Source: Eledone cirrhosa (taxonomy: Eukaryota). Taken from it: a stretch of DNA of 64,000 nt. How positions within the stretch are numbered: the stretch's first letter is position 1; every line of letters begins with the position of its first letter. Both the position numbers and the translations under genes were made by a program. The notes beneath the pieces were generated by a model. It was not told the origin of the DNA. It worked only from the letters and a program-made list of their open reading frames with translations, and ran no database searches. Below, in pieces: positions 9,351 through 58,317 of this stretch. Location: contig OZ024742.1 of NCBI GenBank assembly GCA_964016885.1, positions 363,196,001 to 363,260,000 on the forward strand, written 5' to 3'.

Positions 9351-9449
9351 ATATATAACGAAGGAAATGTGGTAAGGAACCAGGTGGACCATAACGCACC
9401 AAAGTACTCAATACTTGAGGTAGTAGAGTGGGTAATAGGAACCAGTAAG

Positions 9450-9543
9450 ACCCCGACAGCTGAGCTCAAGCCGTTTCGACGGCTAATTCTGGACTAAATG
9501 AACATTTATCCTGGTATTTAAATAGCCGATCTTCTCAAGGGGT
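9450..9543 (-). ncRNA. Type I hammerhead ribozyme, U3-A8 variant (mirror copy)
   Basis: Reverse complement of 15319-15412. Confidence 0.8.
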
Positions 9544-10641
9544 AATTCCATATATGGTCAAAGTGATTGTCAAAAATCAGTAGTAATTCTGTGGTTGCAA
9601 ATTAGTAGGGGAGATGGTGGCTAAACCTGCCAGTAGGAGAAAGAGGGGAGGGGGTGGAGTAGACCCAATCAAGCGTTGGTAGTGCCAGCTACAGCTGGGC
9701 ATGAGGTCAAAGAAGATACAGGGGAGGGGGAGGGGGAGGAAGTCGGAACGGTAGGTAGAACAATGGGGGGTAAAAATAGGAAAGAAAAAATACTGAGAGT
9801 GAAGAAAAGCAAATAAGTGTAAAGAAAAAATTAAATTCTACAACCTAGGTGTCAGGCTATTGTTAGGCGAGAATAAAATAAAGAAAGAAAGAAAGAAGTA
9901 AATAAATAAATAAATAAATAAATAAGGAAATAAGTAAAAGAACTAGGTGGGACGAATTAGGCAAAGACCCTTTTAAGAGGTATAAGTACGTAAATGATAC
10001 GGTGACTGGTCGACAAAAGGGGCCAAAATACTAAAGAGACTACCACGAAATAAACAATAAAGGTTTCCATCCCGGGCCAGCAACGACCCAGTGCAGCAAA
10101 GTGAACTTGTACGACATAATAATTCTGAGTCCCGGGAAAAATATATACTAATGCTAACTCTAAAAGATCTAAAACAAGCTACATGAAAGTTCGTACGAAA
10201 TAAAGGTAGAATACGGAGAAGTAAGTTCAGAATCCACCCCGCCCAGAAGAAAAGCGAAGCAAGAAATACTGAAACGAAAAAATAAGGCATAAGTGCCGCT
10301 AAGAAATATAGAGGGCACAGAGAATAGTGGGAGCGGTCGGAAAAGGGGGGCAAGTATCCGGGGTCTAAGCCAACTGCTATAAAGGGCGGAGTCCGCCAAA
10401 TCTATCAAAGACTAGGGGAGGGGGGAGTGGGGGTACTAAGGCTACATGGGGCCAAAGGGCAGCCTCGGGTGGGCGAGAAAAGACGCCGACAAAGGAGAAG
10501 AGCTGGGGTAGAAGGACAAAGGAGAGAGGGGGGAAGGAAATAAAGGATGCGATAAAAGAATACAAAGAAGATCTTACGTCTTCCTTGGCAAGCAGGGGTT
10601 ACCCATTGCAAAATCGGCAACTGGGGTGTTATAGCCCTAGT

Positions 10642-12158
10642 CTACCCCCCCGGGTCATTATGGGGTTTGAGGGCGAGGTAAGTCCTACGCAATCTATGTT
10701 TACATGCAGTAACCAGTTCATCTTTCTTGTTTAGGAGTTGGTCCGTCGAAAACAGCATTTGTAAAGTTTCCTCCGAGCATAAATTGCACGGACGGCGTCC
10801 TCCCGTGTAAGAATTGGCTCTGGACAGTAATCTCCAAGTGAGATCATAGGTGATGTTGTTGTCCTTGAGGTCCCATATGTGGCCCGAAAGTGTAGTGGCG
10901 TGACGCCGGGCCGGGTTTCGGAAGGTATGTCTATGTTGGTATAGCCGGGTCTTGAAGTCACATGCGGTAAGTCCTATATAGGCTTTGTTGGAGGTATCCG
11001 TCCTCACGTTGCACTGGTAGATCACATTACGGTCTCTGCATCTATTGTCGAGTGGGCAAATAGATCTATCCGGGCAGTTACACCTCCTGGTCGGTTCTCC
11101 ACGGCTATTTAGGTTATTTCTGCCATCGGGGTTGAGTTTTTTGTTGTTAGAGGAGACGATGTTTTGTGCGAAGTTTGGTGTAGTGCTGTAAGAGAGTTTG
11201 ATGGTATTTTTGTTAATTATGTTGTGGTAGCGGTGTTGTAATGGGAAGTGTTTTTCAATGAGCCTAAAGAATAGTTTCCCGATGGGAGTAGTCACCTCTG
11301 CGTTGTGGGGAGGATTGAACCATGTTACATTGCGTGAGCGGCGGTGTCTCCTGCTGGTTCCGCTAATGGGATCTGGACAGTAGGATATTTCCTCCCGGAA
11401 ACCACTCCGCTTGAGGGCCTGGTTGTAATAAGGCGCATGTTCATCGAATATCCGCTCATTAGCTGACAAACGGGATATGCGGAGGGAGATGTTTTTGACC
11501 AGGTTGTTAGTGATGTTCCTAGGATGGTTTGATCGGCGGTGGATGTAGTGCAGATTGTCATTAGGTTTCCTGTATGGGTAGTACAGGTCGTTTTCGAGGT
11601 CGAGGGTTACGTCCAGGAAGTTTACTCGGGTCAGGGACGTTTGTAGGGTTATTTTAAATCCCCAGTCGCGGAAGAATCTGATTAATTGTTTCCGGACCCG
11701 ATCTGTACTACTGGGGTTGTACCCTTTAAGGGTAAGGAGCCCATCATCACGGTACAATCCACCACCGAATGCAGGAAACATATCAGTGAGTTTGGCTATT
11801 AGGAATAATCCTATAAGATCAGTGACCTCCGCCGAATCCGTGGCGCCCATGCTGACGTCGAAGGGTGAGTCGGGAGCTCTTTTTATCCATTTAGAGTCGT
11901 CAAAGAGTAAGACTGTCTTCCTGGCGTGGAGGATGATTTTTCTTTCCTGGTCGGTGATGGGCACGAGTGTTTCGGCGAAGTCCAAGGCGGCAGTAAGTAG
12001 CGGTAAGGTGATTGAAGCATAGTAGCTCTCTATGTCGAACTGTATGAATTTAGTTTCTCGTTTATCCTCCATATTGCTGAACCAGGAGATTACTTCCTGG
12101 GTGTTGATCCATAGGCTAAGTCGGGTGTGTTGCTTGACTTTTGGTATCACGCGGTCTA
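10642..12158 (-). pseudogene. Inverted partial copy of the same PLE ORF (RT core + GIY-YIG)
   Basis: Same translation as the + ORF except T/P in AKL(T/P)DMF and the last codons. Confidence 0.9.
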
Positions 12159-14225
12159 TTTGCGAAAAGACTTAGATGGAGAACTTTTTTCTATGACAGA
12201 TATTGCGACAACCAAGACTTCGGCACCAAGGAGAGATTCGGATTTATTACCTACAAATCTCCGCCCCTGAACCCCTTGCTCGCACCCTTCGAGAATGACC
12301 TCTTCCAACTGGTCAAGAACATTAAATTTAAACCCAGACACAACCGATTCCTACAAAAACTCCGTAGCAACTTAACAGAGTATGATAACACAAATGACAT
12401 CATGGTGCATTCGGATAAAACTGGGAACCTATACTTTGTCAACCCTGACAGATACCACACACTGATCAGGAGCAGCCTAAACTCCACCTATAAAAAGGCT
12501 AACCACTCTTGCATCGAGGACATAAATCGAGATGGACAACAAATCACCTCCAGCCTCGGGGTCGCCGACCGCACGGAACCTCTAGACCCACGGACACCAT
12601 ACTTCACACTGAAGGACCATAAATCCGATTTTGACCGTAAACCCTCCATCAGGCTTATTAACCCAACGAAGTCCGACATAGGGAGAATCAGCAAAAAAAT
12701 CCTAGACCGCGTGATACCAAAAGTCAAGCAACACACCCGACTTAGCCTATGGATCAACACCCAGGAAGTAATCTCCTGGTTCAGCAATATGGAGGATAAA
12801 CGAGAAACTAAATTCATACAGTTCGACATAGAGAGCTACTATGCTTCAATCACCTTACCGCTACTTACTGCCGCCTTGGACTTCGCCGAAACACTCGTGC
12901 CCATCACCGACCAGGAAAGAAAAATCATCCTCCACGCCAGGAAGACAGTCTTACTCTTTGACGACTCTAAATGGATAAAAAGAGCTCCCGACTCACCCTT
13001 CGACGTCAGCATGGGCGCCACGGATTCGGCGGAGGTCACTGATCTTATAGGATTATTCCTAATAGCCAAACTCCCTGATATGTTTCCTGCATTCGGTGGT
13101 GGATTGTACCGTGATGATGGGCTCCTTACCCTTAAAGGGTACAACCCCAGTAGTACAGATCGGGTCCGGAAACAATTAATCAGATTCTTCCGCGACTGGG
13201 GATTTAAAATAACCCTACAAACGTCCCTGACCCGAGTAAACTTCCTGGACGTAACCCTCGACCTCGAAAACGACCTGTACTACCCATACAGGAAACCTAA
13301 TGACAATCTGCACTACATCCACCGCCGATCAAACCATCCTAGGAACATCACTAACAACCTGGTCAAAAACATCTCCCTCCGCATATCCCGTTTGTCAGCT
13401 AATGAGCGGATATTCGATGAACATGCGCCTTATTACAACCAGGCCCTCAAGCGGAGTGGTTTCCGGGAGGAAATATCCTACTGTCCAGATCCCATTAGCG
13501 GAACCAGCAGGAGACACCGCCGCTCACGCAATGTAACATGGTTCAATCCTCCCCACAACGCAGAGGTGACTACTCCCATCGGGAAACTATTCTTTAGGCT
13601 CATTGAAAAACACTTCCCATTACAACACCGCTACCACAACATAATTAACAAAAATACCATCAAACTCTCTTACAGCACTACACCAAACTTCGCACAAAAC
13701 ATCGTCTCCTCTAACAACAAAAAACTCAACCCCGATGGCAGAAATAACCTAAATAGCCGTGGAGAACCGACCAGGAGGTGTAACTGCCCGGATAGATCTA
13801 TTTGCCCACTCGACAATAGATGCAGAGACCGTAATGTGATCTACCAGTGCAACGTGAGGACGGATACCTCCAACAAAGCCTATATAGGACTTACCGCATG
13901 TGACTTCAAGACCCGGCTATACCAACATAGACATACCTTCCGAAACCCGGCCCGGCGTCACGCCACTACACTTTCGGGCCACATATGGGACCTCAAGGAC
14001 AACAACATCACCTATGATCTCACTTGGAGATTACTGTCCAGAGCCAATTCTTACACGGGAGGACGCCGTCCGTGCAATTTATGCTCGGAGGAAACTTTAC
14101 AAATGCTGTTTTCGACGGACCAACTCCTAAACAAGAAAGATGAACTGGTTACTGCATGTAAACATAGATTGCGTAGGACTTACCTCGCCCTCAAACCCCA
14201 TAATGACCCGGGGGGGGTAGACTAG
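12159..14225 (+). CDS. 5'-truncated PLE polyprotein: reverse transcriptase + GIY-YIG endonuclease
   Basis: FAKRLRW N-terminal motif, FDIESYY, SMGATDSAE, LYRDD, NFLDV, CNC..C..C, VIY...YIG, CNLC, CKH; open frame; the TTG at 12141 lies in the inverted arm and is not a real start. Confidence 0.9.
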   Translation, partial: FAKRLRWRTFFYDRYCDNQDFGTKERFGFITYKSPPLNPLLAPFENDLFQLVKNIKFKPRHNRFLQKLRSNLTEYDNTNDIMVHSDKTGNLYFVNPDRYHTLIRSSLNSTYKKANHSCIEDINRDGQQITSSLGVADRTEPLDPRTPYFTLKDHKSDFDRKPSIRLINPTKSDIGRISKKILDRVIPKVKQHTRLSLWINTQEVISWFSNMEDKRETKFIQFDIESYYASITLPLLTAALDFAETLVPITDQERKIILHARKTVLLFDDSKWIKRAPDSPFDVSMGATDSAEVTDLIGLFLIAKLPDMFPAFGGGLYRDDGLLTLKGYNPSSTDRVRKQLIRFFRDWGFKITLQTSLTRVNFLDVTLDLENDLYYPYRKPNDNLHYIHRRSNHPRNITNNLVKNISLRISRLSANERIFDEHAPYYNQALKRSGFREEISYCPDPISGTSRRHRRSRNVTWFNPPHNAEVTTPIGKLFFRLIEKHFPLQHRYHNIINKNTIKLSYSTTPNFAQNIVSSNNKKLNPDGRNNLNSRGEPTRRCNCPDRSICPLDNRCRDRNVIYQCNVRTDTSNKAYIGLTACDFKTRLYQHRHTFRNPARRHATTLSGHIWDLKDNNITYDLTWRLLSRANSYTGGRRPCNLCSEETLQMLFSTDQLLNKKDELVTACKHRLRRTYLALKPHNDPGGVD

Positions 14226-15318
14226 GGCTATAACACCCCAGTTGCCGATTTTGCAATGGGTAACCCCTGCTTGCCAAGGAAGACGTAAGATCTTCTTTGT
14301 ATTCTTTTATCGCATCCTTTATTTCCTTCCCCCCTCTCTCCTTTGTCCTTCTACCCCAGCTCTTCTCCTTTGTCGGCGTCTTTTCTCGCCCACCCGAGGC
14401 TGCCCTTTGGCCCCATGTAGCCTTAGTACCCCCACTCCCCCCTCCCCTAGTCTTTGATAGATTTGGCGGACTCCGCCCTTTATAGCAGTTGGCTTAGACC
14501 CCGGATACTTGCCCCCCTTTTCCGACCGCTCCCACTATTCTCTGTGCCCTCTATATTTCTTAGCGGCACTTATGCCTTATTTTTTCGTTTCAGTATTTCT
14601 TGCTTCGCTTTTCTTCTGGGCGGGGTGGATTCTGAACTTACTTCTCCGTATTCTACCTTTATTTCGTACGAACTTTCATGTAGCTTGTTTTAGATCTTTT
14701 AGAGTTAGCATTAGTATATATTTTTCCCGGGACTCAGAATTATTATGTCGTACAAGTTCACTTTGCTGCACTGGGTCGTTGCTGGCCCGGGATGGAAACC
14801 TTTATTGTTTATTTCGTGGTAGTCTCTTTAGTATTTTGGCCCCTTTTGTCGACCAGTCACCGTATCATTTACGTACTTATACCTCTTAAAAGGGTCTTTG
14901 CCTAATTCGTCCCACCTAGTTCTTTTACTTATTTCCTTATTTATTTATTTATTTATTTATTTACTTCTTTCTTTCTTTCTTTATTTTATTCTCGCCTAAC
15001 AATAGCCTGACACCTAGGTTGTAGAATTTAATTTTTTCTTTACACTTATTTGCTTTTCTTCACTCTCAGTATTTTTTCTTTCCTATTTTTACCCCCCATT
15101 GTTCTACCTACCGTTCCGACTTCCTCCCCCTCCCCCTCCCCTGTATCTTCTTTGACCTCATGCCCAGCTGTAGCTGGCACTACCAACGCTTGATTGGGTC
15201 TACTCCACCCCCTCCCCTCTTTCTCCTACTGGCAGGTTTAGCCACCATCTCCCCTACTAATTTGCAACCACAGAATTACTACTGATTTTTGACAATCACT
15301 TTGACCATATATGGAATT

Positions 15319-15412
15319 ACCCCTTGAGAAGATCGGCTATTTAAATACCAGGATAAATGTTCATTTAGTCCAGAATTAGCCGTCGAAACGGCTTGAGCTC
15401 AGCTGTCGGGGT
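15319..15412 (+). ncRNA. Type I hammerhead ribozyme, U3-A8 variant with extended stem II
   Basis: ACCCC-UUGAGAA-GA(U)CGGCUA...UAGCCGUC-GAAA-CGGC(UUGAGCUCA)GCUG-UC^GGGGU; predicted cleavage after 15407. Confidence 0.8.
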
Positions 15413-15422
15413 CTTACTGGTT

Positions 15423-15520
<98 letters not shown>

Positions 15521-15532
15521 TATACATATATA

Positions 15533-15613
<81 letters not shown>

Positions 15614-15662
15614 TGTGTGTGTGTATCGATCTATCTATCTATCTCTCTCTCTCTATATATAT

Positions 15663-15809
15663 ATAAGAAGAAATTAAAAGATGGTTAAAAAAGTTCCATG
15701 TATTTTATTTGATGAGATCGCAAATATCGTCCCAGGATGATATTTGTTTTTGAAATGCGCATAATAAAATACGTGGAACTTTTTTAACCATCTTTTAATT
15801 TCTTCTTAT
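15663..15809 (+). mobile_element. Family C miniature: single HHR (15703-15769) flanked by inverted tail copies
   Basis: Homologous to 28893-28990; about 46-bp terminal inverted repeat continuous with HHR stem I. Confidence 0.8.
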
Positions 15810-16043
15810 ATATACTCCAGTCCAATAAACAGTTGAGTGGTACCTATCCGATATTTGCATTGCTTTATCGTGCTACAATAAAACTCACCTCCTACATATA
15901 TGTATATGTATATATATACATACACGCACCACAACGCATGGATGCATAATTTCAACAAACACATGTGTGTATATATATATGTCCCAAGGCTCTGATACAA
16001 TCAACATCATAAACAGAGAGCTGGCATATCTAAGAACTGACTA

Positions 16044-16099
16044 ACTGCCTGATAAGGTCATAACCGCTCAATGGCTATCATCGAAATATATATAGCAGT
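16044..16099 (+). ncRNA. Degenerate type I hammerhead
   Basis: ACUGC-CUGAUAA-imperfect stem II-GAAA-UAUAUA-UA^GCAGU. Confidence 0.6.
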
Positions 16100-16160
16100 A
16101 AATAAAGGATTATGAGTTCATGTAATTGACTTATGTTTCGTCACTATATATATATATATA

Positions 16161-16535
16161 GGGAATGTAATGTCCAGTTACTGTAGTTCCACCAAAGTGA
16201 GCATTAAATACGTAGTTTCCAGTCGGTAAAGAGGTGTAGAACTAAGCAGAGTGTAATTATAATAATAATAAAAAGTACGATTAGTTATCTCTTCATTACC
16301 TTTATTGAGTAGTGAGGCGCGTTTCGCTATTGATCAGCTTAAGGTTCGATCTGTATCGATCTAACTCGACTCTGGAATCAAAATCTCGTCGGAACTCTGC
16401 TCTATCATTACGACAGCAGAGTTCTGACGAGCTTTTGATACCAGAATCGGGCTAAATTGAACCTTGAGCTGATCAATAGCGAAACGCGCTTCACTACTCA
16501 ATAAACGCAATGAAGACATAACAAATCGACATTAT
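16161..16535. mobile_element. Older palindromic twin-HHR element with tail on the left
   Basis: Imperfect inverted repeat about 16278-16530; CUGACGA-GCU (16424) ... AGC-GAAACGCG (16481) mirrored on the minus strand. Confidence 0.65.
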
Positions 16536-16544
16536 TGTCCCTTT

Positions 16545-16661
16545 ACGGACTGAGTTCAAATCCCGCTGAGGTTAACTTTGCCTTTCATCCTTACGGGGCC
16601 GATAAAATGAAGTACCAGTAATGCGCTGGTTATTTGCTGGCTTTGTGCCAAAAGTAGAGAC

Positions 16662-16664
<3 letters not shown>
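16545..16664 (+). mobile_element. tRNA-derived SINE (family 1), 5'-truncated
   Basis: B-box and shared core. Confidence 0.8.
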
Positions 16665-16695
<31 letters not shown>

Positions 16696-16961
16696 GGAAC
16701 AAATGAAACGAAATTTCAATTCTCACTCTTAGTACGGCTGTTACATGAATATAAGTATGTATACGTACATACATATATGTACACAGACGTACAGTAGTAT
16801 ATATATATATATATACATACATGCACACATATATAAATGTACGTATGGATTCACCGAACATTTATTATAATGCGTGGTGTGTTTGTAAACAAACATCCCG
16901 AATTAAGCCGTACAGTGTCTAGCAACCATCGTTGCTCATTTCTTCAACACTGACAAAGGAA

Positions 16962-17002
16962 CGCTGTACTAGTTTCAAGCTTATTAGCTATCGTCAGCAA
17001 CG
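16962..17002 (-). ncRNA. Minimal type I hammerhead (family E)
   Basis: CGUUG-CUGACGA-U-AGCU(AAUA)AGCU-U-GAAA-CUAG-UA^CAGCG. Confidence 0.8.
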
Positions 17003-17647
17003 TATACATTCCTGCCAGATGGTTGAACGTCTGAAAGTATATATTTTCCTTATGCATATTAACGGCTGAGCAGCCTAATTTGCATATCGAGTGAGTTAAT
17101 CGGCCGGGGTACCGAAAACGATAAACGGAAAAAATGAAACGAAATTTCCTTTCTCACTCTTAGTACGGATGTTACTTAAATATAAGTATGTATGCGTACA
17201 CACATATATGTATACAGACGTAGAGTAGTATGTATATATATATACATACATGCACACATATGTATATGTACGTATGCATTCACCGAACATTTATGTATGT
17301 AGACACTGTACGGCTCAATACGGGATGTTTGTTTACAAACACACCGAGCATTATAATAAATGTTCGGTGAATCCATACGTACATATATATATGTGTGCAT
17401 GTATGTATATATATATACATACTACTGTACGTCTGTATACTTATATGTATGTACGTATACATACTTATATATAAGTAACAGCCGTACTAAGAGTGAGAAA
17501 TGAAATTTCGTTTCATTTTTTCCGTTTATCGTTTTCGGTACCCCAGCCGATTAACTCACTCGATATGCAAATTAGGCTGCTCAGCCGTTAATATGCATAA
17601 GGAAAGTGTATACTTTCAAACGTTCAACCATCTGGCAGGAAGGTATA

Positions 17648-17688
17648 TTTTGCTGACGATAGCTAATAAGCTTGAAACTAGTACATCG
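17648..17688 (+). ncRNA. Minimal type I hammerhead (family E)
   Basis: CUGACGA...GAAACUAGUA^CAUCG; stem I partly eroded. Confidence 0.7.
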
Positions 17689-18080
17689 TTCCTTTGTCAG
17701 TGTTGAACAAATGAGCAACGATGGTTGCTAGACACTGTACGGCTTAATTCGGGATGTTTGTTTACAAACACACCGAGCATTATAATAAATGTTCGGTGAA
17801 TCCATACGTACATATATATGTGTGTGCATGTATGTATATATATATATATACATACTACTGTACGCCTGTATACTTATATGTATGTACGTATACATACTTA
17901 TATATAAGTAACAGCCGTACTAAGAGGGAGAAATGAAATTTCGTTTCATTTTTTCCGTTTATCGTTTTCGGTACCCCGGCCGATTAACTCACTCGATATG
18001 CAAATTAGGCTGCTCAGCCGTTAATATGCATAAGGAAAGTGTATACTTTCAGACGTTCAACCATCTGGCAGGAAGGTATA

Positions 18081-18121
18081 TTTTGCTGACGATAGCTAAT
18101 AAGCTTGAAACTAGTACATCA
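18081..18121 (+). ncRNA. Minimal type I hammerhead (family E)
   Basis: Next tandem copy, 433 bp downstream. Confidence 0.7.
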
Positions 18122-18312
18122 TTCCTTTGTCAGTGTTGAACAAATGAGCAACGATGGTTGCTAGACACTGTACGGCTTAATTCGGGATGTTTGTTTACAA
18201 ACACACCGAGCATTATAATAAATGTTCGGTGAATCCATACGTACATATATATATATGTGTGCCTGTATGTATATATATATACATACTACTGTACGACTGT
18301 ATACATATATGT

Positions 18313-18603
18313 ATCATCTTGGTTAAGAGAGTGGGACTGGCTTTGTGCAGTGCCTTTGCTCACTATAAAAGCTTCACGGCACAGGCATTGCTTTGTATCT
18401 GGAGATCTCTCTGCACTTGTCGTCACATGGTGCCATGGGCCAGCACTATGTGTCAATAATTTTCACAGGTGCAGTGTTTGTACCAGAGTTTTCAAGTCGC
18501 TGGCTGGACTAAAATGTCACACTTGTTTAGCGCATCGGTAGGGGTTCTCTTACATGCATATAAAGTAGTGGCCGTACTCGAAAACGAGTTGGCAGCCACC
18601 ACC
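18313..18603 (+). mobile_element. RTE-derived non-autonomous element, 3' part
   Basis: Matches 57995-58283; encodes remnant C2H2 finger CSVCTRVFKSLAGLKCHTCLAHR typical of RTE ORF ends. Confidence 0.7.
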
Positions 18604-18618
18604 CTATACGTATACATA

Positions 18619-18692
<74 letters not shown>

Positions 18693-18711
18693 GATATATA
18701 GATATATATCA

Positions 18712-18726
18712 ACTAGAAATTGATTG

Positions 18727-18761
<35 letters not shown>

Positions 18762-19542
18762 AGATAAACACATGAAACAATCACAGGGGATAATTTGTAA
18801 AGTGTGTAATCACATATAGCTAGGTAGGTAACTAATTAAAGTTTAACTACAGCTTCAAATATTACCTTTACAAAAAAAAGATTAATCTTTCTTGTATATA
18901 TTTCATTATGTAATTAATTTAATTAAATTCTATGGTGGATATGGCTCATGTGCCGGACATGACTCCCTGAATTTAATTTAATTAATTTTGGATATATACA
19001 CGGCTCCTTAATTGTAGAGCTAACTCAGTTGAAAGGACTCGGCTGCTATTTATAGCTGTCAATCACCCTATTCACGCCACTGGGATGACGCTAGCATGTT
19101 GTTAGTAGTTTTAGAATTGCAACACGTGCGATGGGTCACTCGCAGATTTGCATTTGATGTGTAAACACAGAAAGTTAAATCTTCTCCCTTACTGAAGATC
19201 CGTCATTTGACTACTGTTACTTTACGGATTAATGGTGAAATATATTTCTTTAATGAAATATATACAAGGAAGATTAATCTTTTTTTTAAAAGGTAATATT
19301 TGAAGCTCTAGTTAAACTTTAATTAGTTACCTACCTAACTATGTGTGATTACACACTTTACAAATTATCCCCTGTGATTGTTTCATGTGTTTATTTTAAA
19401 TATATATATGTCAATCAATTTCTAGTTGATATAAAATATTCGGATCTATTCATTGGTATCTTTGAGCTTATTCTACGGTGGATATGGTGCATGTCTCGCA
19501 CATGACTCCCTTAATTTAATTTAATTTAATTTAATTAATTTT

Positions 19543-19546
<4 letters not shown>
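18712..19546. mobile_element. Family F: inverted arm plus partial-tandem 543-bp HHR monomer
   Basis: 18712-18908 inverts about 19251-19432; 18928-18997 repeats directly at 19471-19546. Confidence 0.75.
19186..19270 (+). ncRNA. Type I hammerhead with branched stem II (family F)
   Basis: CCUUA-CUGAAGA-...-GAAA-UAUA-UA^CAAGG. Confidence 0.55.
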
Positions 19547-19597
<51 letters not shown>

Positions 19598-19610
19598 TAT
19601 GTATGTATGT

Positions 19611-19727
19611 AGGGATACGGGAATCAGTAGACAGGACCTGGGGGCGGCGATGGGGTACAGGGAATTCTGGGGCATGAGAGTGAGATCCATCATCTCGACA
19701 GTAGTCGACGAATGATGATGATGATAT
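19611..19727 (+). mobile_element. Extreme 3' end of an RTE-like LINE with (GAT)n tail
   Basis: DTGISRQDLGAAMGYREFW...VVDE* followed by TGATGATGAT. Confidence 0.55.
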
Positions 19728-19732
19728 GTATA

Positions 19733-20110
19733 TGTTAATATGCATAAGGAAAGTATATACTTTCAGACGTTCAACCATCTGGCAGGAAGGTATACGATGC
19801 TGACGATAGCTAAGCTAATAAACTTGAAATTAGTACATCGTTCCTGTGTCAGTTTTGATCAAAACGGTGACGTGGTTGCCTAAACATTGTACGGCGTAAT
19901 TCGGGCTGTTTGTTTGTTTACAAACGAACAAACCGAGCATTATAATAAATATTCGGTAAACCGATACGTGCATATATATATGTGTGCATGTATGTATATA
20001 TATACATACTACTGTTCGTCTGTATACATATATGTATGTACGTATACATACATACTTACACTTAAGTAAGTGCCGTACTAAGAGTGAGAAATGAAATTTC
20101 GTTTCATTCT
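19733..20110 (+). mobile_element. Diverged partial family E monomer with HHR at 19795-19840
   Basis: Homologous to 17587-17950; stem I CGAUG/CAUCG perfect. Confidence 0.8.
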
Positions 20111-21135
20111 ATTCCATTTTTAAATATATATATAATTTTAAATATATATATACATATATATATATATATAAAATATTAAACAAATAATGAACAAACAATT
20201 CCTTATATTAAACAAAAAAAGTTCACTATTTAACGATCGTTTCTAGGGCATATATGTGTTATAATTGGTATGCATATTTAACAGATCTATGTACAAAATT
20301 ATACAAAATTATACAAATTATCAAGATTAAATATACATACCTAACTCATATATACGCCGTCTTCAGAAATAATGAAGTATATTTATTGATAATAACAACA
20401 ATTCAAAATATCAGTTCAAAATTGACCAATGAAAACACAAAGGGTTAAAAGCAGTTTGGTGTGTGTATATATATGTAAAAACCTTACACATATTTTACAA
20501 TAATGTGTGTATAATTTGTATGTGTATACTAAAAAGATGGATGTAAACACAAAATTTCAAGGTTAATATCTCTGTAAGCTTAATGCGCTGATAAGATACG
20601 CAAAGATACTTATGGAGTCAAGCATATAAATATATTTTTTTCATACTCACACACATCAGTATAATCACATATAACTGTGCGTATATGCATAAATATACAC
20701 ATAACCACGAACATACAAACACACACACTCCCCCACTCACATTTATATATGTGGATATAAAATCATAAGCAAATAGAAATTAAGTCACTCACATAAAAAC
20801 ACTGGTACATACATTTCAAGATCAAGATACAGAAATTAGGTGGGAGGGGGGGGGGAGGGGTCAGTATTAGATTGTCAGACCAGACAGCCTAAAATAAATG
20901 TATCTATAAATTAAGAAAAATAAAAAAATAAAAACAATAAAATATAATAAATGTACATACACATACAGATATACATACACATACATACATGTACGCGCAC
21001 ATAGAGATATCTACACATACATACATACACACATACCTATATTGTCATACACACACATACATTTACACGAACATACACATACACATATAAAAAGATATAA
21101 ATACACACACACTCACGCGCAACACATACACACAT

Positions 21136-21186
<51 letters not shown>

Positions 21187-21295
21187 TACACACACACATA
21201 GACTCATATATATATATATATACATATACACATATATATACAAACATATATATCCCCACACTCATACCACCATAAATATATATACAAACACCCAC

Positions 21296-21333
<38 letters not shown>

Positions 21334-21761
21334 CCACATACACACACGTACACATATATATATATATATATATACACATATATACACATATAATATATAG
21401 TTATCTGATTCAGAAATATTATATGGAGTAGCGAAACAATTGTAAACGGACATTATTATTATTAATATTATTATTATTATTATTATTCTCTACATTCCTT
21501 ACATCAAACTAAAATATGTTGACAATCTTTTCATAATGTCTTTCTTGTGAAATTTGTGGTCTTGTTTTGCTTAACTAATGAATATTTGTAGCTCTGCGCA
21601 TCTAACTTCTGCATGAACCCAGCCACCTAGCTTCTTTCTACTGCATATTGCACATTGAGCACATGCCTTTACGCTTTGGCTTCTAACTAATTCACCAATC
21701 TCTCCTCTAATATCTCCTCTCCTATCTCCATCTCTCTCTTTAAGATTGGTTACTCTTGAAC

Positions 21762-21834
<73 letters not shown>

Positions 21835-22104
21835 ATAATAATAAATTTGAAGACTAAAATCCAAAGAGGGCTCGATAAGGATAAATATATATCAAATATA
21901 TAAGAACCGTAGAGCAAATATTTATTAAAATAACAGATTAAAGTTTAAGCAAAGAATCGCTGCTTTCACCCTTAACGGGATCTTCTGAAACTAACAAAGT
22001 CAATCTGTAAACGCAGAAGTGGGTGGATATTTCAAAAAACGTTGCAACCGGAGGAAGACAGGAAGACGATACTTTGGTTCGTGGAAACGTATATATATAA
22101 TAAC

Positions 22105-22152
<48 letters not shown>

Positions 22153-22447
22153 TTATCCGTAGTGCTGTAATATGAATATTATACACAGTAGATGGACAGC
22201 TCACGTAGGGTTTGCTCGACGGTTCCAGTTGTAGTTTCAAAAGTAATCCGGAGAAAATAGAAGGATTTAAATAGATACAGTTCAGTAAAAGGAATTTATT
22301 GACACGTGTTTCAATAACAGTTATTAACCTGAAAACAGCTGCTATCTACAGAGTATTAATTATGCAGACACTCAATATTTCAATGTTATTTTCAACTACC
22401 ATTTCATCAGAATAATATCATTGAGAACTTGTTTGGTTTTTATAGAG

Positions 22448-22519
<72 letters not shown>

Positions 22520-23038
22520 TGCCTCCTCGTTATCGAGTATGGCCATTGCACGATATACCATTATTATGAATTATTAATTAATTCCATCGTGCAATGCCTG
22601 TGCGTAAAGTTATTTTTAAAGTGAAGAAATAGTGTGCTGAGCCAATCTCACTCACTGAGTGACAGTAGCTATAAGACGCCAAGAAGAAAAGATCAACATC
22701 ATCGGTAAATATTGAGCCGCAGGTTGGAGTTGTCACCGGTTCCTGAATTGCCTTCTTCTAGAAGAATGCCCTGACAAAGGCTAGGGGTCCTTCACTCCCA
22801 GTGCTATAACCACGTGAACGGGTATCCAGCCCGACTACATCTATGTCACTGCGCATACACATACACATACATATGTACATGTGTATATACATATTTACAC
22901 ATTTTTGGATGGCCATTGACTCTTATGAGTTCTTCTCTATATATATGTATATATATATGTATCTATGTATACATATATATTTATTTATACACACACACAC
23001 ACACATATATTTATATATATATATAAATAAATAAATAA

Positions 23039-23096
<58 letters not shown>

Positions 23097-23322
23097 ATAT
23101 ATATATATGGATAAATATATATTCTTATAGAAGGCTATTGATGTTTGGCGATTCCTTAAAATCTTTCTCTGTGTGTTGAATAAAGATCGATAAAATCTCT
23201 ACACAATGGTAATTTTTTTAACAGGTCTATATATATGATGGTGTTGAACATATTGATCTTTATAGGTATATATATACGGGAGACGTCGGATTTAATAAGA
23301 GCAACATTGAGGTTTCTATAGG

Positions 23323-23522
23323 NNNNNNNNNNNNNNNNNNNNNNNNNNNNNNNNNNNNNNNNNNNNNNNNNNNNNNNNNNNNNNNNNNNNNNNNNNNNNN
23401 NNNNNNNNNNNNNNNNNNNNNNNNNNNNNNNNNNNNNNNNNNNNNNNNNNNNNNNNNNNNNNNNNNNNNNNNNNNNNNNNNNNNNNNNNNNNNNNNNNNN
23501 NNNNNNNNNNNNNNNNNNNNNN
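23323..23522. other. Assembly gap (200 N)
   Basis: Direct reading. Confidence 1.
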
Positions 23523-23570
<48 letters not shown>

Positions 23571-23575
23571 TGTGT

Positions 23576-23622
<47 letters not shown>

Positions 23623-24050
23623 TGTCTGTCTGTCTGTGTCTGTCTTTGTCTGTGTCTGTGTGTGTGTGTGTGTGTGTTTGAGTGTATTTGTGTGTGTGTA
23701 AGTTTGTGTTGTGTTGACAACCAGAAAATATAACGATGGGCAAATATCAATAATTACTCTCAATATTTCAGCCATGTCTCAGTGATCAGGTTTCGATTCC
23801 CATTAACACAGATTTCACGTCATTCCAAATACAATTTCCCTATAGAAACCTCAATGTTGCTCTTATTAAATCCGACGTCTCCCGTATATATATACCTATA
23901 AAGATCAATATGTTCAACACCATCATATATATAGACCTGTTAAAAAAATTACCATTGTGTAGAGATTTTATCGATCTTTATTCAACACACAGAGAAAGAT
24001 TTTAAGGAATCGCCAAACATCAATAGCCTTCTATAAGAATATATATTTAT

Positions 24051-24108
<58 letters not shown>

Positions 24109-24294
24109 TATTTATTTATTTATATATATATATAAATATATGTGTGTGTGTGTGTGTATAAATAAATATATATGTATACATAGATACATATATATATACA
24201 TATATATAGAGAAGAACTCATAAGAGTCAATGGCCATCCAAAAATGTGTAAATATGTATATACACATGTACATATGTATGTGTATGTGTATGCG

Positions 24295-24626
24295 CAGTGA
24301 CATAGATGTAGTCGGGCTGGATACCCGTTCACGTGGTTATAGCACTGGGAGTGAAGGACCCCTAGCCTTTGTCAGGGCATTCTTCTAGAAGAAGGCAATT
24401 CAGGAACCGGTGACAACTCCAACCTGCGGCTCAATATTTACCGATGATGTTGATCTTTTCTTCTTGGCGTCTTATAGCTACTGTCACTCAGTGAGTGAGA
24501 TTGGCTCAGCACACTATTTCTTCACTTTAAAAATAACTTTACGCACAGGCATTGCACGATGGAATTAATTAATAATTCATAATAATGGTATATCGTGCAA
24601 TGGCCATACTCGATAACGAGGAGGCA

Positions 24627-24633
<7 letters not shown>
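24295..24633 (+). mobile_element. RTE-derived non-autonomous element (mirror at 22513-22850; relative at 60935-61124)
   Basis: 3' end GGCCATACTCGATAACGAGGAGGCAGCCATC(AT)n related to 58253-58283. Confidence 0.6.
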
Positions 24634-24716
<83 letters not shown>

Positions 24717-24748
24717 CTCTATAAAAACCAAACAAGTTCTCAATGATA

Positions 24749-24868
24749 TTATTCTGATGAAATGGTAGTTGAAAATAACATTGAAATATTGAGTGTCTGC
24801 ATAATTAATACTCTGTAGATAGCAGCTGTTTTCAGGTTAATAACTGTTATTGAAACACGTGTCAATAA
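24749..24868 (+). ncRNA. Type I hammerhead with about 70-nt stem II insertion (mirror 22296-22415, minus)
   Basis: UUAUU-CUGAUGA-AAUGGUAGUU...AACUGUUAUU-GAAA-CACGUG-UC^AAUAA. Confidence 0.85.
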
Positions 24869-25011
24869 ATTCCTTTTACTGAACTGTATCTATTTAAATC
24901 CTTCTATTTTCTCCGGATTACTTTTGAAACTACAACTGGAACCGTCGAGCAAACCCTACGTGAGCTGTCCATCTACTGTGTATAATATTCATATTACAGC
25001 ACTACGGATAA

Positions 25012-25075
<64 letters not shown>

Positions 25076-25187
25076 GTTATTATATATATACGTTTCCACG
25101 AACCAAAGTATCGTCTTCCTGTCTTCCTCCGGTTGCAACGTTTTTTGAAATATCCACCCACTTCTGCGTTTACAGATTGACTTTGTT

Positions 25188-25238
25188 AGTTTCAGAAGAT
25201 CCCGTTAAGGGTGAAAGCAGCGATTCTTTGCTTAAACT
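25188..25238 (+). ncRNA. Type I hammerhead with one core change (mirror 21942-21992, minus)
   Basis: AGUUU-CAGAAGA-U-CCC(GUUAA)GGG-U-GAAA-GCA...UGC-UU^AAACU. Confidence 0.65.
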
Positions 25239-25345
25239 TTAATCTGTTATTTTAATAAATATTTGCTCTACGGTTCTTATATATTTGATATATATTTATC
25301 CTTATCGAGCCCTCTTTGGATTTTAGTCTTCAAATTTATTATTAT

Positions 25346-25379
<34 letters not shown>

Positions 25380-25383
<4 letters not shown>

Positions 25384-26720
25384 TTCAAGAGTAACCAATC
25401 TTAAAGAGAGAGATGGAGATAGGAGAGGAGATATGAGAGGAGAGATTGGTGAATTAGTTAGAAGCCAAAGCGTAAAGGCATGTGCTCAATGTGCAATATG
25501 CAGTAGAAAGAAGCTAGGTGGCTGGGTTCATGCAGAAGTTAGATGCGCAGAGCTACAAATATTCATTAGTTAAGCAAAACAAGACCACAAATTTCACAAG
25601 AAAGACATTATGAAAAGATTGTCAACATATTTTAGTTTGATGTAAGGAATGTAGAGAATAATAATAATAATAATAATATTAATAATAATAATGTCCGTTT
25701 ACAATTGTTTCGCTACTCCATATAATATTTCTGAATCAGATAACTATATATTATAATTGATCTGGTGCAGTTGAAAATAATTAACATATTTAAAAAACAG
25801 AGCGGCTTATCGGAACTTCAAAGGAATATAAATTAAAATAATGCTGAATGTTACATAATATAATATACTATATATTGGTTTTTCACTATGGTGTCTTTGT
25901 TGCATCAAGTGTCAGCCATAATCAAGCAGTATTCATCTGTCGAGGCTGCATTGTGCGAGATCTGCCTATGGGTAACAAGATGGCTGCCAAAGGACATATT
26001 TACCTTACTAATTTCAAGGGAAGTAACTCCTCGAGAGTTTAGAAATTGTGGGTAGTTTATAGTTAAGTGCTAATTTTTAAATGTTTTAATTGAGAGACAA
26101 TGTAGGGGAGGTAACTTATAATTATCTAAGTTAGTCATAGCTATTTAACTTATTAGCTACAAGTAAAAATGGGGCTAGATGACTAAGTTGGGTCAAATAT
26201 TCTATTGGCGAAGGAATTAGCCCTTCGATGTCGACAGCTAATAGTTACCTCAGTTCTATCGTTAATCGGCAGAGGTCGTGATACAGTTATGTAATATGCT
26301 TCTGTATTTCAGAGATCACAAGATTTTCTTCATCCATTGAACGGTTGGGCCCTAGCCACGATATCCCAATTTAGAGAGTGTTGAACGTTGCTTAATTTAT
26401 GGTTTTTAATGAGCCTAGCTAGCGATGTCGAACATCTGTTGCTAGGGTCTCGGAAGGAAAAAGAGTGTGCGTTATAACGTACCTTAAAAGGGTTAATTAT
26501 TTTCAACTGCACCAGATCATAATATATAGTTATCTGATTCAGAAATATTATATGGAGTAGCGAAACAATTGTAAACGGACATTATTATTATTAATATTAT
26601 TATTATTATTATTATTATTATTCTCTACATTCCTTACATCAAACTAAAATATGTGGACAAACTTTTAATAATGTCTTCCTTGTGAAATGTGTGGTCTTAT
26701 TTTGCTTAACTAATGAATAT
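25380..26720 (-). mobile_element. Degenerate PLE with GIY-YIG remnant, inverted arm and tail
   Basis: FKVRYNAHSFSF...LNWDIVARAQPF...SCDL on minus 26230-26490; 26492-26720 inverts about 25557-25786; eroded long-stem-II HHR at about 25697-25817. Confidence 0.75.
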
Positions 26721-32975: not shown

Positions 32976-33068
32976 ATCTTTGTCGTAAAAATGCTCCGTC
33001 TTTAAATTATAATTCTTCTTCTTTTCCTATGTTGAGCCACAACCGTGAAAACATGATAAAAGATGTTA

Positions 33069-33871
33069 TAGCTGTGACCTTCATAGCTGCCCACATGGAG
33101 ACTATTTCAACCCACACTATCTAATATATCCCTCCTTTGTTTAGCTGTGACCTTCATAGCTGCCCACGTGGAGACTATTTCAACCCAAACTATCTAATAT
33201 ATCCCTCCTTTGTTTAGCTGTGACCTTCATAGCTGCCCACGTGGAGACTATTTCAACCCAAACTATCTAATATATCCCTCCTTTGTTTAGCTGTGACCTT
33301 CATAGCTGCCCACATGGAGACTATTTCAACCCAAACTATCTAATATATCCCTCTTTTGTTTAGCTGTGACCTTCATAGCTGCCCACGTGGAGACTATTTC
33401 AACCTAAACTATCTAATATATCCCTCCTTTGTTTAGCTGTGACCTTCAGAGCTGCCCACATGGAGACTATTTCAACCCAAACTATCTAATATATCCCTCC
33501 TTTGTTTAGCTGTGATCTTCAGAGCTGCCCACGTGGAGGTTATTTCAACCCAAACTATCTAATATATCCCTCCTTTGTTTAGCTGTGACCTTCAGAGCTG
33601 CCCACGTGGAGGTTATTTCAACCTAAACTATCTAATATATCCCTCCTTTGTTTAGCTGTGACCTTCAGAGCTGCCCACGTGGAGGTTATTTCAACCTAAA
33701 CTATCTAATATATCCCTCCTTTGTTTAGCTGTGACCTTCATAGCTGCCCACGTGGAGGTTATTTCAACCTAAACTATCTAATATATCCCTCCTTTGTTTA
33801 GCTGTGATCTTCAGAGTTGCCCACGTGGAGGTTATTTCAACCTAAACTATCTAATATATCCCTCCTTTGTT
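33069..33871. repeat. 73-bp minisatellite, 11 copies
   Basis: TAGCTGTGACCTTC recurs at 33069, 33142, 33215 and onward with no unique spacers. Confidence 0.95.
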
Positions 33872-34665
33872 TTTGTTGTTTTTAACGCGTGTATGTGCGA
33901 TCGGAAAGATAATTTCTTTCTCTGGAAGAAATTGGTTCTGTCCAAACCTGGAAAGGGATCGGTTTCGTCATGTTTAAAAACACCCAAGATATATTTAGTG
34001 TTGGAACGGACTCCCTAAGATTGCAGCAAGAGATAAGCGCCATTGACTTTTTTCTTTTTAAAATGCATTCTAAATCTTTTACATTCGTTACATAACTATC
34101 TTATATTAGTTGTAGAAAATAGCTCAATTCTATAGAATTTTAAACAGTTATACTCTGTGTTCTTTATCTCCATGTTAGCTTCCATTTCTTCGCTTTTAAA
34201 GTTAAATTTTTGTTTCATTTTTTCTCACTTCGAGAGATAATTTTAATCCAATTTGCTTTCCCACTTTGAATTATATGTAAATGTTACTCACAAACTGAAA
34301 AAAATAAAATATTTGTATTTTTCTTTTATTGTGTTTCTCAAAATAAAAAGAGAGATATTTAGTAACCCACGAGGGAGAATCTAGACTGATTATCTGTCAT
34401 TTCACACTATACTCTCGTCGCTGTAGTGAACAGCACGAGGTTTCTTTTTACGTATTGATTGAAGTGCCAAGGGAGATGAATCGAAACAAGTTTATAAAAC
34501 TCAACAGGATGGATATAGGAGTTTATTAGCACACGGCATAGTTTCACTAACTTGAAAACATACTGCATTCTGAAAGATTCTAAACTCATAACATATTCCA
34601 TGTAACATATTACATACTGAAACATTAACCATAATACGCCATGTCTGTTCGTATATATATATATA

Positions 34666-52927: not shown

Positions 52928-52968
<41 letters not shown>

Positions 52969-53037
52969 AAAAAGATATCAAATCGAAAATGCAACTGGAG
53001 TCTTATTTTAAAAAAATATATATATATTTATTTGGTT

Positions 53038-53075
53038 CCTTTACCGGTTTCGCAGTTCTTCTGCTTTTCAAAAGG
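53038..53075 (-). ncRNA. Minimal type I hammerhead, U3-A8 variant
   Basis: CCUU-UUGAAAA-GCAG(AAGAA)CUGC-GAAA-CCGG-UA^AAGG. Confidence 0.8.
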
Positions 53076-53309
53076 TGAGTTGAGATGGAGGATCTGTGGT
53101 TTTTCTCACATCTGGTTGGTCTCTGAATGTTACTTATTTTATATGGAAAAAGTGGCTCGAAATGCCAGGTTTTTCGAGAAGTAATTTGATTGGTTTGTCA
53201 ATAATTATAATAAATTTCGTGCCAGTTCGCGTTACAATAGTACTTCAAATAAGGGGGGGGGGGTTGTCACAGGTTGTTTTTTCATATATGAGTGTTTGAA
53301 TTTCTTTTT

Positions 53310-53914
53310 ACTTGAAAAAAGGAGGCTCACGAAGGCTTTTTTTTGGTTGGTTATAAATGGAATTATGGCTGTCACGTGAACAAATTTTCATTAAATTTTT
53401 GTGCCCTTATTTGGAAATCCATTCTCTAGCCTTTTTAGAGAATTTTTTGATAAAAAGATAATGGTCAAGAGAAAGGGATGGGAGAATTGTTCTGGTTCAG
53501 TGAATATGGTTAGTTCGCTGGGGTGTCAGAATTCAGATTTTCTATTGAATAAAGAAAGTAAAGATATGTGTTTTTATTTGTGTGCTTGTGTGTGTGTGTG
53601 CGTGTGTGTGTGTGTGTGTGTTTGAATGTCTTTACTTTAGAAAAAGGTGGCTCACGAAGGCTTTTTTTAATAAACGTGATTTGATTGGTTATAAATGAAA
53701 TTTCGCTGTCACGTGAACAAGTTTTTATTACATTTTTGCCCCCTTATTTGGAAAACTATTCTTTATAGCGAATGTTATGACAATGGACAGATAGTGGTCA
53801 AGAGAAAAGGGATTGTTCTGGTTCAGTGAATATGGTTAGTTCGCTGGGGTGTCAGAGTTCAGATTTTCTATTGAAGTGAAGATATGTATGTTTATTTGTG
53901 TGCTTGTGTGTGTG

Positions 53915-53955
<41 letters not shown>
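53310..53955. repeat. About 325-bp imperfect tandem duplication in the Neptune 3' UTR
   Basis: GGCTCACGAAGGCTTTTTT...GTTAGTTCGCTGGGGTGTCAG...(GT)n occurs twice. Confidence 0.8.
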
Positions 53956-53958
<3 letters not shown>

Positions 53959-54431
53959 TATTGGAAGATGATTCTATTAGTAGAAATGGGGGAGGGAGTT
54001 GTGTGTGTGTGTACATGGGTGTTATGTGTGTGTGTGCGAGTAAGTTAAGATGGAGAGAATATATATTTTGTGTGTGTGTATATATATGTGTGTAGGAAAG
54101 TGGTTCTATTAGTAAAAATGGGGAGGGAGTTGTGGGTGTGGGGGTTGTTATGTGTGTGTATGGGTGTTATGTGTGTGGGAGTATGGTTAGCATGTTAAGA
54201 TGAAGAGAATATATATATATATATATATATATTGTGTGTGTGTGTATGTGTGTGTGTAGGAAAGTGATTCCTTTAGTAGGAATATATTTGAATGAACATA
54301 TTTTCCTTACTTATTCGTATTGTCAGTGCAAACGTATGTTAAGGTTTATTTAGTTCGGGTTTTTATTTTCTAAAGTAGAAGGTGTTATGTGTGTGTGTCT
54401 ATGTCATATTATGGTGTTGACATAATGTATA

Positions 54432-56732: not shown

Positions 56733-57190
56733 AAAAAATGATTTTTCGGGAATGTTTTTTCATTGGTATTATTATATCTAATGGTATTTCCCCTGTTGTT
56801 GTGTGGTCTTGTATAGGAGTTTCGGACGTATCGAGGTTCGGTTTGTTGATAGTCCGGGTTGTAGATTTGGTTCCTTTGTGTGGGTTGGGATCTACGGTTT
56901 TGGAACAGGCTTTGTGTGGGCAGGGGTCTACGGTTTTGGAATAGGTTTTGTGTGGGTTGTGATCTGCGGATCAGGTCCTGCCTTGTGTTCGGGGATCTTT
57001 GGTTTTTGTTAGTAGGGTTATAGTTTTGTCTATGGTTTCTGGGATTATCGTTATAGTTTTGCTGGGGGTATGTTGGACGTTTTGTTACTTTTTTTGTTGT
57101 GCATGTGGTGTGTGAGTTTTAGTTTGTTTTAAAAATGGGTTACCTGTATGTTGTTCATTTTTGAAATCCATTTCGTAGTTGTTGATTTTC
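56699..57190 (-). pseudogene. Upstream N/Q/R/P-rich ORF of the Neptune element (5'-truncated, probable frameshift near 57090)
   Basis: Open 57118-56699, with 11-aa repeats LFQNRRxxPTQ, ending NHFLDQGYRTHDTR*. Confidence 0.6.
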
Positions 57191-57673: not shown

Positions 57674-58283
57674 GTGTCAGGTCACCAGTTGGTGCTACTG
57701 GTAACATGTATCCCAGTACAACCTGTCTCATGGTCGGGTCGTTGGCGACTAAACTGACAACCCCACCAAGGTTTCTTGGTGAGGAGGGTGACTTTGGACA
57801 TCCTGCAGGACTAAAAACAAAACCTGTCAAAGGGCAAAGGAGCTCTTAAGAGTCAATGGCCATCCAAAATCACCGGGAGAGATGACCCATTAGCCTTTGT
57901 CAAGGCAGAATTCTAGGAGAAGGAAAACTCTGATATAACACCTGCAACCCTGATGGTATCCAATGATGTTGACTTGTTCTTCTTTTTGGTAAATATCATC
58001 TTGGTTAAGAGAGTGGGACTGGCTTTGTGCAGTGCCTTTGCTCACTATAAAAGCTTCACGGCACAGGCATTGCTTTATATCTGGAGATCGTTCTGCACTT
58101 GTCGTTACATGGAACCATGGGCCCAGCACTATGTGTCAATAATTGTCACAAGTGTAGTGATTGTACTAGAGTTTTCAAGTCGCTGGCTGGACTAAAAAGT
58201 CATATTCGTTCAGCGCATCGGTAGGCGTTCTCCTAGATGGATATAAAGTATTGGCCGTACTCGAAAACGAGTTGGCAGCCACC
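57674..58283 (+). mobile_element. Bipartite RTE-derived non-autonomous element nested in (TA)n
   Basis: Absent from the mirrored arm near 50400-50423; RTE-type 3' end shared with 18313-18603. Confidence 0.75.

Positions 58284-58317
<34 letters not shown>

Follow-up and report, generated by a model that had tools for sequence, protein, structure and literature searches.

A 433-nt non-coding hammerhead repeat of Eledone cirrhosa, probably a retrozyme, in a head-to-head insertion laid out like those of PLEs

Described retrozymes and PLEs and their likeness to the 433-nt unit

Non-LTR retrozymes are known from cnidarians, a mussel, and amphibians, and a PLE origin has already been proposed for them (PMC7229834; bioRxiv 10.64898/2026.07.22.740005). 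The retrozymes of coral, mussel (350–390 bp), and axolotl (330/350 bp) make circles, and the axolotl ribozymes whose helix III consists of one pair and a palindromic tetraloop cleave better as dimers (PMC7229834). Meanwhile, eight of nine predicted Xenopus retrozyme dimers gave no cleavage in vitro (bioRxiv 10.64898/2026.07.22.740005). The link between animal retrozymes and PLEs was proposed from shared ribozymes, co-occurrence, and the Xenopus phylogeny (PMC7229834; bioRxiv 10.64898/2026.07.22.740005), and the preprint states its own vertebrate focus as a limit. As for cephalopods, a tally of 235 hammerhead 1 matches is given with the genome of the giant squid (PMC6962438). A literature search judged by titles and abstracts yielded no paper on a cephalopod retrozyme.

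PLE insertions often contain an inverted 5'-truncated copy and a tail of 30–40 bp at one end, and several PLE clades target microsatellites (PMC8557442). In the anole, the PLE protein cuts both strands of AT-rich DNA and initiates cDNA at a pair of stem-loops inside the RNA; the tail corresponds to the sequence separating these two starts, and hammerhead cleavage was not required (PMC11167929).

The window studied here, a stretch of 64,000 nt, contains a 433-nt unit, an abundant non-coding repeat with a hammerhead motif, that is probably a retrozyme predicted to yield circles and probably copied into (TA)n by PLE proteins. A retrozyme-type repeat mobilised by a PLE had been proposed in a sequence-only reading of this DNA, and the proposal gained support from the abundance of the family, its head-to-tail joints, its fixed and tailed 3' ends, and the conservation of its RNA structure. 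The class of non-LTR retrozymes is already known, and the unit is likely a non-autonomous PLE passenger belonging to it. As in the metazoan non-LTR retrozymes described in PMC7229834, the tandem unit is non-coding, a few hundred bases long, below 50% in GC, and strongly self-paired as a monomer, with one type I hammerhead per unit. The helix III composed of one pair and a palindromic tetraloop resembles that of HHR_Amex1, and the U.U mismatch at the base of helix II resembles that of HHR_Amex2 (PMC7229834). The period of 433 falls within the 150–450 bp range of the head-to-tail repeats of non-LTR retrozymes. The unit is nevertheless slightly longer than the metazoan retrozymes, and most of its copies, judging by the depth profile, are apparently 5'-truncated rather than arranged in long arrays. 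In addition, according to folding predictions, an alternative pairing partly blocks its hammerhead; in the circles of most metazoan retrozymes, by contrast, the ribozyme is expected to remain free (PMC7229834).

The insertion shares with the EN+ PLEs (Penelope/Poseidon, Neptune, and Hydra) an inverted 5'-truncated partner, a one-sided 3' tail, AT-rich or (TA)n targets, 5' truncation, and a hammerhead upstream of the 3' ends (PMC8557442, PMC11167929). It differs from them in having no ORF and a tail of 56 nt instead of the usual 30–40 (PMC8557442). Like the vertebrate retrozymes regarded as pLTR derivatives, the unit has a proposed relation to PLEs, a predominance of monomers and short tandems, and a local origin of its tandem; the preprint draws its link from co-occurrence and the Xenopus phylogeny, whereas ours comes from the anatomy of the insertion (bioRxiv 10.64898/2026.07.22.740005).

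The hammerhead had been read as a minimal one, and this assignment failed. The minimal pLTR hammerheads of PMC4209133 do resemble it in the palindromic 15.2–16.2 stretch, the predicted dimeric action, and opposite-strand copies a few hundred bases apart. However, its helix II has 4 bp and not 7–8, loop 1 and a distal stem beyond it are present, and the G10.1-C11.1 pair is absent. As modelled, the hammerhead of the unit belongs to the canonical(-like) metazoan type I class of PMC4209133 and not to the minimal class.

Layout and history of the insertion and its family in public runs

A (TA)n target run at 16665..16689 forms the outer end of the left arm, which lies on the minus strand at 16690..17294 and comprises unit positions 57–433 followed by 1–234 (611 unit-nt, 1.4 units). 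Its 5' end is central and its 3' end abuts the (TA)n. The stretch extending beyond the 3' end of the right arm is a 56-nt tail (16690..16745, minus strand), whose end falls at the base of a long predicted hairpin. The 5' ends of the arms meet at a head-to-head junction (17295..17299) of 5 nt that, as read from the sequence, match neither arm, and the 3' ends point outward. The right arm (17300..18314, plus strand) holds 2.35 units; Tandem Repeats Finder describes the array 17300-18314 as 2.4 copies of period 433 with 96% matches, and the left arm is 92–96% complementary to it. The period proposed earlier was recovered, but not its exactness: successive copies are spaced by 429 and 433, and the alignment of units 1 and 2 shows differences at 8 of 429 positions (1.9%). 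Nor is the right arm continuous up to 18625: an inserted repeat of ~290 bp, unrelated to the unit and 90% alike to 57994-58337, breaks it at 18315..18602. The arm then resumes (18603..18625, plus strand) and ends at ~18625, at about unit position 175–178. The following (TA)n runs to about 18690, and the outer ends of both arms are thus (TA)n. The arms had been seen to end at different TA-like positions of the unit, and the two (TA)n ends are 56 nt apart on the unit.

The GC content of the unit is 0.355. Its longest ATG frame encodes 68 aa, has no Pfam match, and lacks its start codon in the left arm, in agreement with the claim that the unit has no real ORF; neither arm holds an RT + GIY-YIG ORF between the repeats. 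A separate 5'-truncated copy of a second subfamily, ~10% diverged (84% alike by BLAST), lies at 19734..20119 on the plus strand, with its 3' end near the tail site and AT-rich repeats beyond. An assembly artefact was considered for the 433-nt element and ruled out because the left and right arms differ by ~5%.

Other repeats were seen in the window. Both copies of the unclassified ~290-bp repeat (18315-18602 and 57994-58337) lie at TA-rich sites, with a short piece near 60978. A 73-bp tandem array at 33064-33872 has 11.1 copies and 97% matches, and a large palindrome at 21389-25755, with arms 98–100% identical and an N gap near 23.3–23.5 kb, could represent either a further inverted insertion or an artefact of the assembly.

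The 1.9% divergence between units 1 and 2 compares with 4.6–8.6% in the other pairings of arm segments; eight differences would arise at background rates with P = 0.002 (4.6%) or 0.0003 (5.3%). The two units also share five private changes, the damage to stem I included, and the partial third unit retains the family letter at one of these five sites. The comparison of the copies thus indicates that the 2.4-unit tandem is partly a later local duplication, and therefore it provides no evidence of rolling-circle copying. Without this duplication, both arms cover 611 unit-nt (57 to 667 and 1 to 611), which upholds the claim that each exceeds one monomer. Each of them runs over the cut site a single time; the template would therefore have been either a circle or an uncleaved multimer. 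The longer-than-unit arms had been taken to fit rolling-circle copying; a circle does fit them, but an uncleaved multimer fits them equally well. It is possible, though less likely in our estimate, that the unit is a non-autonomous PLE passenger copied from linear uncleaved multimers transcribed from tandem loci, with circles absent or a by-product and the hammerhead slow or assisted by protein. For such copying, 1.4 units of template suffice per arm, and in vitro the anole PLE used uncleaved RNA as the dominant template, while its hammerhead needed protein (PMC11167929). Against this, all three of the animal retrozyme families tested gave circles (PMC7229834).

The equality of the arms (611/611, with the 56-nt offset at both ends) was noticed post hoc and would occur by chance in ~1–2% of cases. 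It is the basis for a more specific and doubtful reading, in which a PLE protein dimer primed both target strands at two internal sites of one 433-nt circle and rolled equally on both. If this were true, the coupled arms on a small non-coding template would make the formation of inverted and tailed PLE insertions directly testable, and the same system would test whether retrozyme circles are the template of the RT. After the insertion, the right arm lost stem I, duplicated locally, and gained the 290-bp insert. Because of these changes, we regard the locus as a fossil, a decayed copy with one intact ribozyme motif.

The family was also found in public sequencing data. Of 23 runs listed, 20 contained part of the stretch, and four were compared with 17575-18007: X1, X4, and X8 as contigs and X21, a RAD library, as reads; X1 may be the source of the window, whereas X4 and X8 are labelled as other organisms. 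None of the 23 was an RNA run with the sequence, which has no bearing on expression. The unit was present in 11,144 of 16,285,364 contigs of X1, 75,948 of 12,467,656 reads of X21 (0.6%), 78 of 8,254,286 contigs of X4, and 12 of 23,643,904 contigs of X8. Head-to-tail joints from 18007 to 17575 were found in three of the four runs, namely in 22 contigs of X1, 15 reads (8 starts) of X21, and two contigs of X4 (one at 432 and one at 433); X8 showed none among the 15 of 40 joint rows seen. Among the 24 of 576 loose-end rows seen, ends running into (TA)n occurred at 17906 (X1, X4, and X8), a site that a letter private to the reference blurs to ~17903-17906, and at 17962 (X1 and X4). These preferred 3' ends of the family, 56 nt apart, coincide on the unit with the ends of the right arm and of the left arm, respectively. 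In X21, some 13,700 reads depart from the unit at 17941-17942, in the loop of the long hairpin, and turn into mixed AT-rich sequence; this may be a third 3' end, lying 35 nt beyond the first. Most prominent in the same run is a second subfamily that resembles the 19.7 kb copy and has both strands of two helices altered. Seven opposite-strand joints in this run could be library chimeras and were set aside.

From the part proximal to the 3' ends to the most distant one, the summed contig depth, which as word depth is not copy number, falls from 1.65 through 1.44 and 0.92 to 0.33 million in X1 and from 730 through 573 and 418 to 224 in X4, leaving the most distant part at a relative depth of 0.20 and 0.31, respectively. 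This polarity is the pattern of a 5'-truncating retroelement and not that of a satellite. A satellite or minisatellite amplified at the DNA level, with the hammerhead-like motif as a dead relic, is a very improbable explanation in spite of the local duplication of the unit documented at the locus and the TA-rich tracts that favour slippage: besides the polar drop in depth, the fixed 3' ends at (TA)n and the inverted junction speak against it, as do the family variants, which spare the helices where private changes do not.

Another reading that we consider unlikely takes the unit for the pseudo-LTR of a coding PLE with an ORF beyond the window, the tandem being a local accident. Retrozyme-like tandems do resemble pLTRs and can arise by local pLTR duplication (bioRxiv 10.64898/2026.07.22.740005), and the tandem at this locus is a local duplication. 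The 24 of 576 loose-end rows leave further room for this explanation, and one X8 contig departs from the unit at 17907 for 255 nt. However, both arms, the right one as reconstructed, wrap round the unit with no ORF, and the head-to-tail joint is present in three runs. Well-supported loose ends are unit variants or mixed AT-rich flanks, with no shared coding flank and no RT/GIY-YIG flank among the 24 of 576 rows, and the share of X1 contigs continuing into unlike sequence rounds to 0. The same 24 rows show no pile-up of 5' ends at 17683-17684, which is in line with copying from uncleaved multimers and fits a circle equally.

Hammerhead motif and conservation of the RNA fold

The motif CUGACGA-U-AGCU/AGCU-U-GAAA-CUAG-UA occurs at 17653 (+), 18086 (+), and 16997 (-), with N17 at 17683, 18116, and 16967, respectively. 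Both loop 1 and loop 2 are present, helix II has 4 bp, helix III consists of one pair and the palindromic tetraloop, and a distal helix extends stem I past a bulge of 5–6 nt. The earlier claim of one hammerhead with a palindromic ACUAGU per unit holds for these three copies. It fails for the 19.8 kb copy: in its hammerhead at 19800, stem II carries a duplication of 5 nt and one disrupted pair, and stem III is not palindromic.

Within the locus, only the left arm has an intact type I hammerhead (16956..17014, minus strand), which combines the distal stem, the core CUGACGA, a stem II with the U.U base and an AAUA loop, GAAA, and the palindromic ACUAGU with a complete stem I (CGUUG/CAGCG); the cut is predicted after 16967. 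In the unit 1 hammerhead (17636..17694, plus strand), the core is intact, but a private CG-to-TT change at 17648-17649 disrupts stem I, and the unit 2 hammerhead (18069..18127, plus strand) has the same damage and a G-to-A change at 18121. Stem I thus reads UUUUG/CAUCG in unit 1 and UUUUG/CAUCA in unit 2, with two of five consecutive pairs left. The family letter at the damaged site is CG in ~99% of the depth of X1, in >90% of X21, and in all of X4 and X8. Stem I had been reported to covary between copies; CGUUG/CAGCG in the left arm and the complete CGAUG/CAUCG at 19795 do so, but the UUUUG of both tandem units breaks the pairing. Judging from these sequences, the left-arm copy is the right substrate for a cleavage assay, and the positions 17683 and 18116, which had been named for this, belong to the copies with damaged stem I. 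With stem I broken in both tandem units, the locus lacks the two consecutive complete hammerheads by which an 'active' retrozyme locus is operationally recognised in the preprint (bioRxiv 10.64898/2026.07.22.740005).

A hammerhead descriptor was made for this analysis. In 20,000 dinucleotide shuffles of a monomer, it was matched 6 times in its loose form and never in its tight form, which puts the motif beyond chance. Scans against Rfam by e-value, covering 14000-24000 and 16900-17100, found no hammerhead family; what they returned were microsatellite-driven miRNA models and weak matches to sRNA, snoRNA, and viral models, none of which reached the gathering score. The exact hammerhead pattern had 0 matches in metagenome contigs and 0 in viral contigs, and the exact pattern of the tail hairpin had 0 in metagenome contigs.

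By ViennaRNA, the active fold is less stable than the minimum by 3.4 kcal/mol in the intact copy and by 6.1 kcal/mol in unit 1. Inactive pairing of the core was favoured even in the intact copy, where the stem I pair probability was 0.02–0.03, and this predicted preference would suit copying from uncleaved multimers; it should be noted that these models leave out core and tertiary contacts. For the dimer, an additive estimate of −35.2 kcal/mol fell short of the −42.8 kcal/mol of the freely folded dimer, the kissing geometry being outside the model.

The window is unusually rich in other hammerhead-like motifs (5072, 15710, 16290-16520, 18734-19424, 28899, 48517/48531, and 48908; those at 15710 and 16290-16520 were read by eye), several of them in short inverted pairs. 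They are probably remnants of further PLE or non-autonomous families.

The folding of the monomer has a z-score of −8.8 (−6.7 without the TA tract) with 68% of positions paired, and 5 of 59 control tiles of the microsatellite-rich window fold equally well. For the analysis of variation, 40 of 77 rows were used, from which seven places where the window copy is odd and two second letters were removed, leaving 31 family variants. Of these, 23 fall at unpaired positions, 5 keep a pair, and 3 break one, compared with 11.9 breaks expected under random placement (P about 1e-4). Pairs were broken by 2 of 22 X1 variants (at least 5%) and by 14 of 26 private changes, counted in single window copies outside the TA tract (Fisher P = 0.0017). 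As the family variants spare the helices that private changes break, the family appears, under the modelled fold, to propagate under an RNA-fold constraint while single copies decay freely. The conservation of pairing spans the whole unit, which speaks against a merely linear template. The catalytic core has no variants in the 40 of 77 rows, but as only ~1 would be expected by chance, this absence was given no weight. In the consensus fold of the three window copies, which are too few and too decayed for this purpose, 2 of 115 pairs showed a double-sided change with positive covariation.

Coding PLEs of the window and a possible route of mobilisation

Two coding PLEs were recognised in the window, neither with sequence similarity to the unit. 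The young Hydra-type PLE (9356-15427) has head-to-head arms 99.9% identical over 2725 bp, the motifs RWR, DKT, and CxCx5C, and a 695-aa open frame at 12138-14225. Its hammerhead occurs in a U3-A8 core variant at 15324 (+) and 9538 (-). With an 80-nt one-sided tail and both ends in (TA)n, its layout is like that of the 433-nt insertion, and it is a possible active helper, though without a sequence link to the unit. A homologue search with the ORF of this neighbouring PLE gave 220 matches; among the 120 listed, the one organism named is a coral. The Neptune-like PLE (52960-57100, minus strand) has DKG, GLKF, CX4CxxC, and GIY-YIG motifs and one in-frame stop near 56100. Within it, a hammerhead-like motif at 53071 with a U3-A8 core and a palindromic CCGG helix III loop has the geometry of the 433-nt unit. 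A comparison of the unit with ten PLE or HHR-bearing regions of the window detected no similarity beyond chance (lowest P = 0.045 among 30 tests), and no partner PLE or parent pLTR emerged from these regions.

The likeness of the insertion to tailed, inverted PLE copies, together with a coding PLE nearby, argues strongly, by sequence and analogy, that the unit was mobilised by a PLE protein. For the favoured reading of a retrozyme copied by PLE proteins, the following route may be proposed. Longer-than-unit copies would be transcribed, and two hammerheads would pair via the palindromic ACUAGU and cleave to release 433-nt monomers, which a host RtcB-type ligase would circularise. The cleavage, the ligation of the circle, and its use as a template are taken from other retrozymes alone, by analogy. 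A PLE RT/GIY-YIG protein would then nick both strands of the (TA)n target, and the cDNA would begin at internal stem-loops of the RNA that follow the cut site at distances of 223 and 279 nt on its downstream side. In the predicted fold, the two 3' ends at these distances past the cut lie one in a hairpin loop and the other at the foot of the next hairpin. Finally, both cDNAs would be extended backwards across the hammerhead, each over more than a unit length, and would then be joined head to head.

The family thus presents, on a hammerhead unit without coding capacity, the signature of PLE insertion: fixed 3' start sites inside the unit, a tail at one end only, the inverted junction, and (TA)n targets. 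As such, it offers a compact substrate for studying PLE trans-mobilisation and for tests of a circular versus a linear template.
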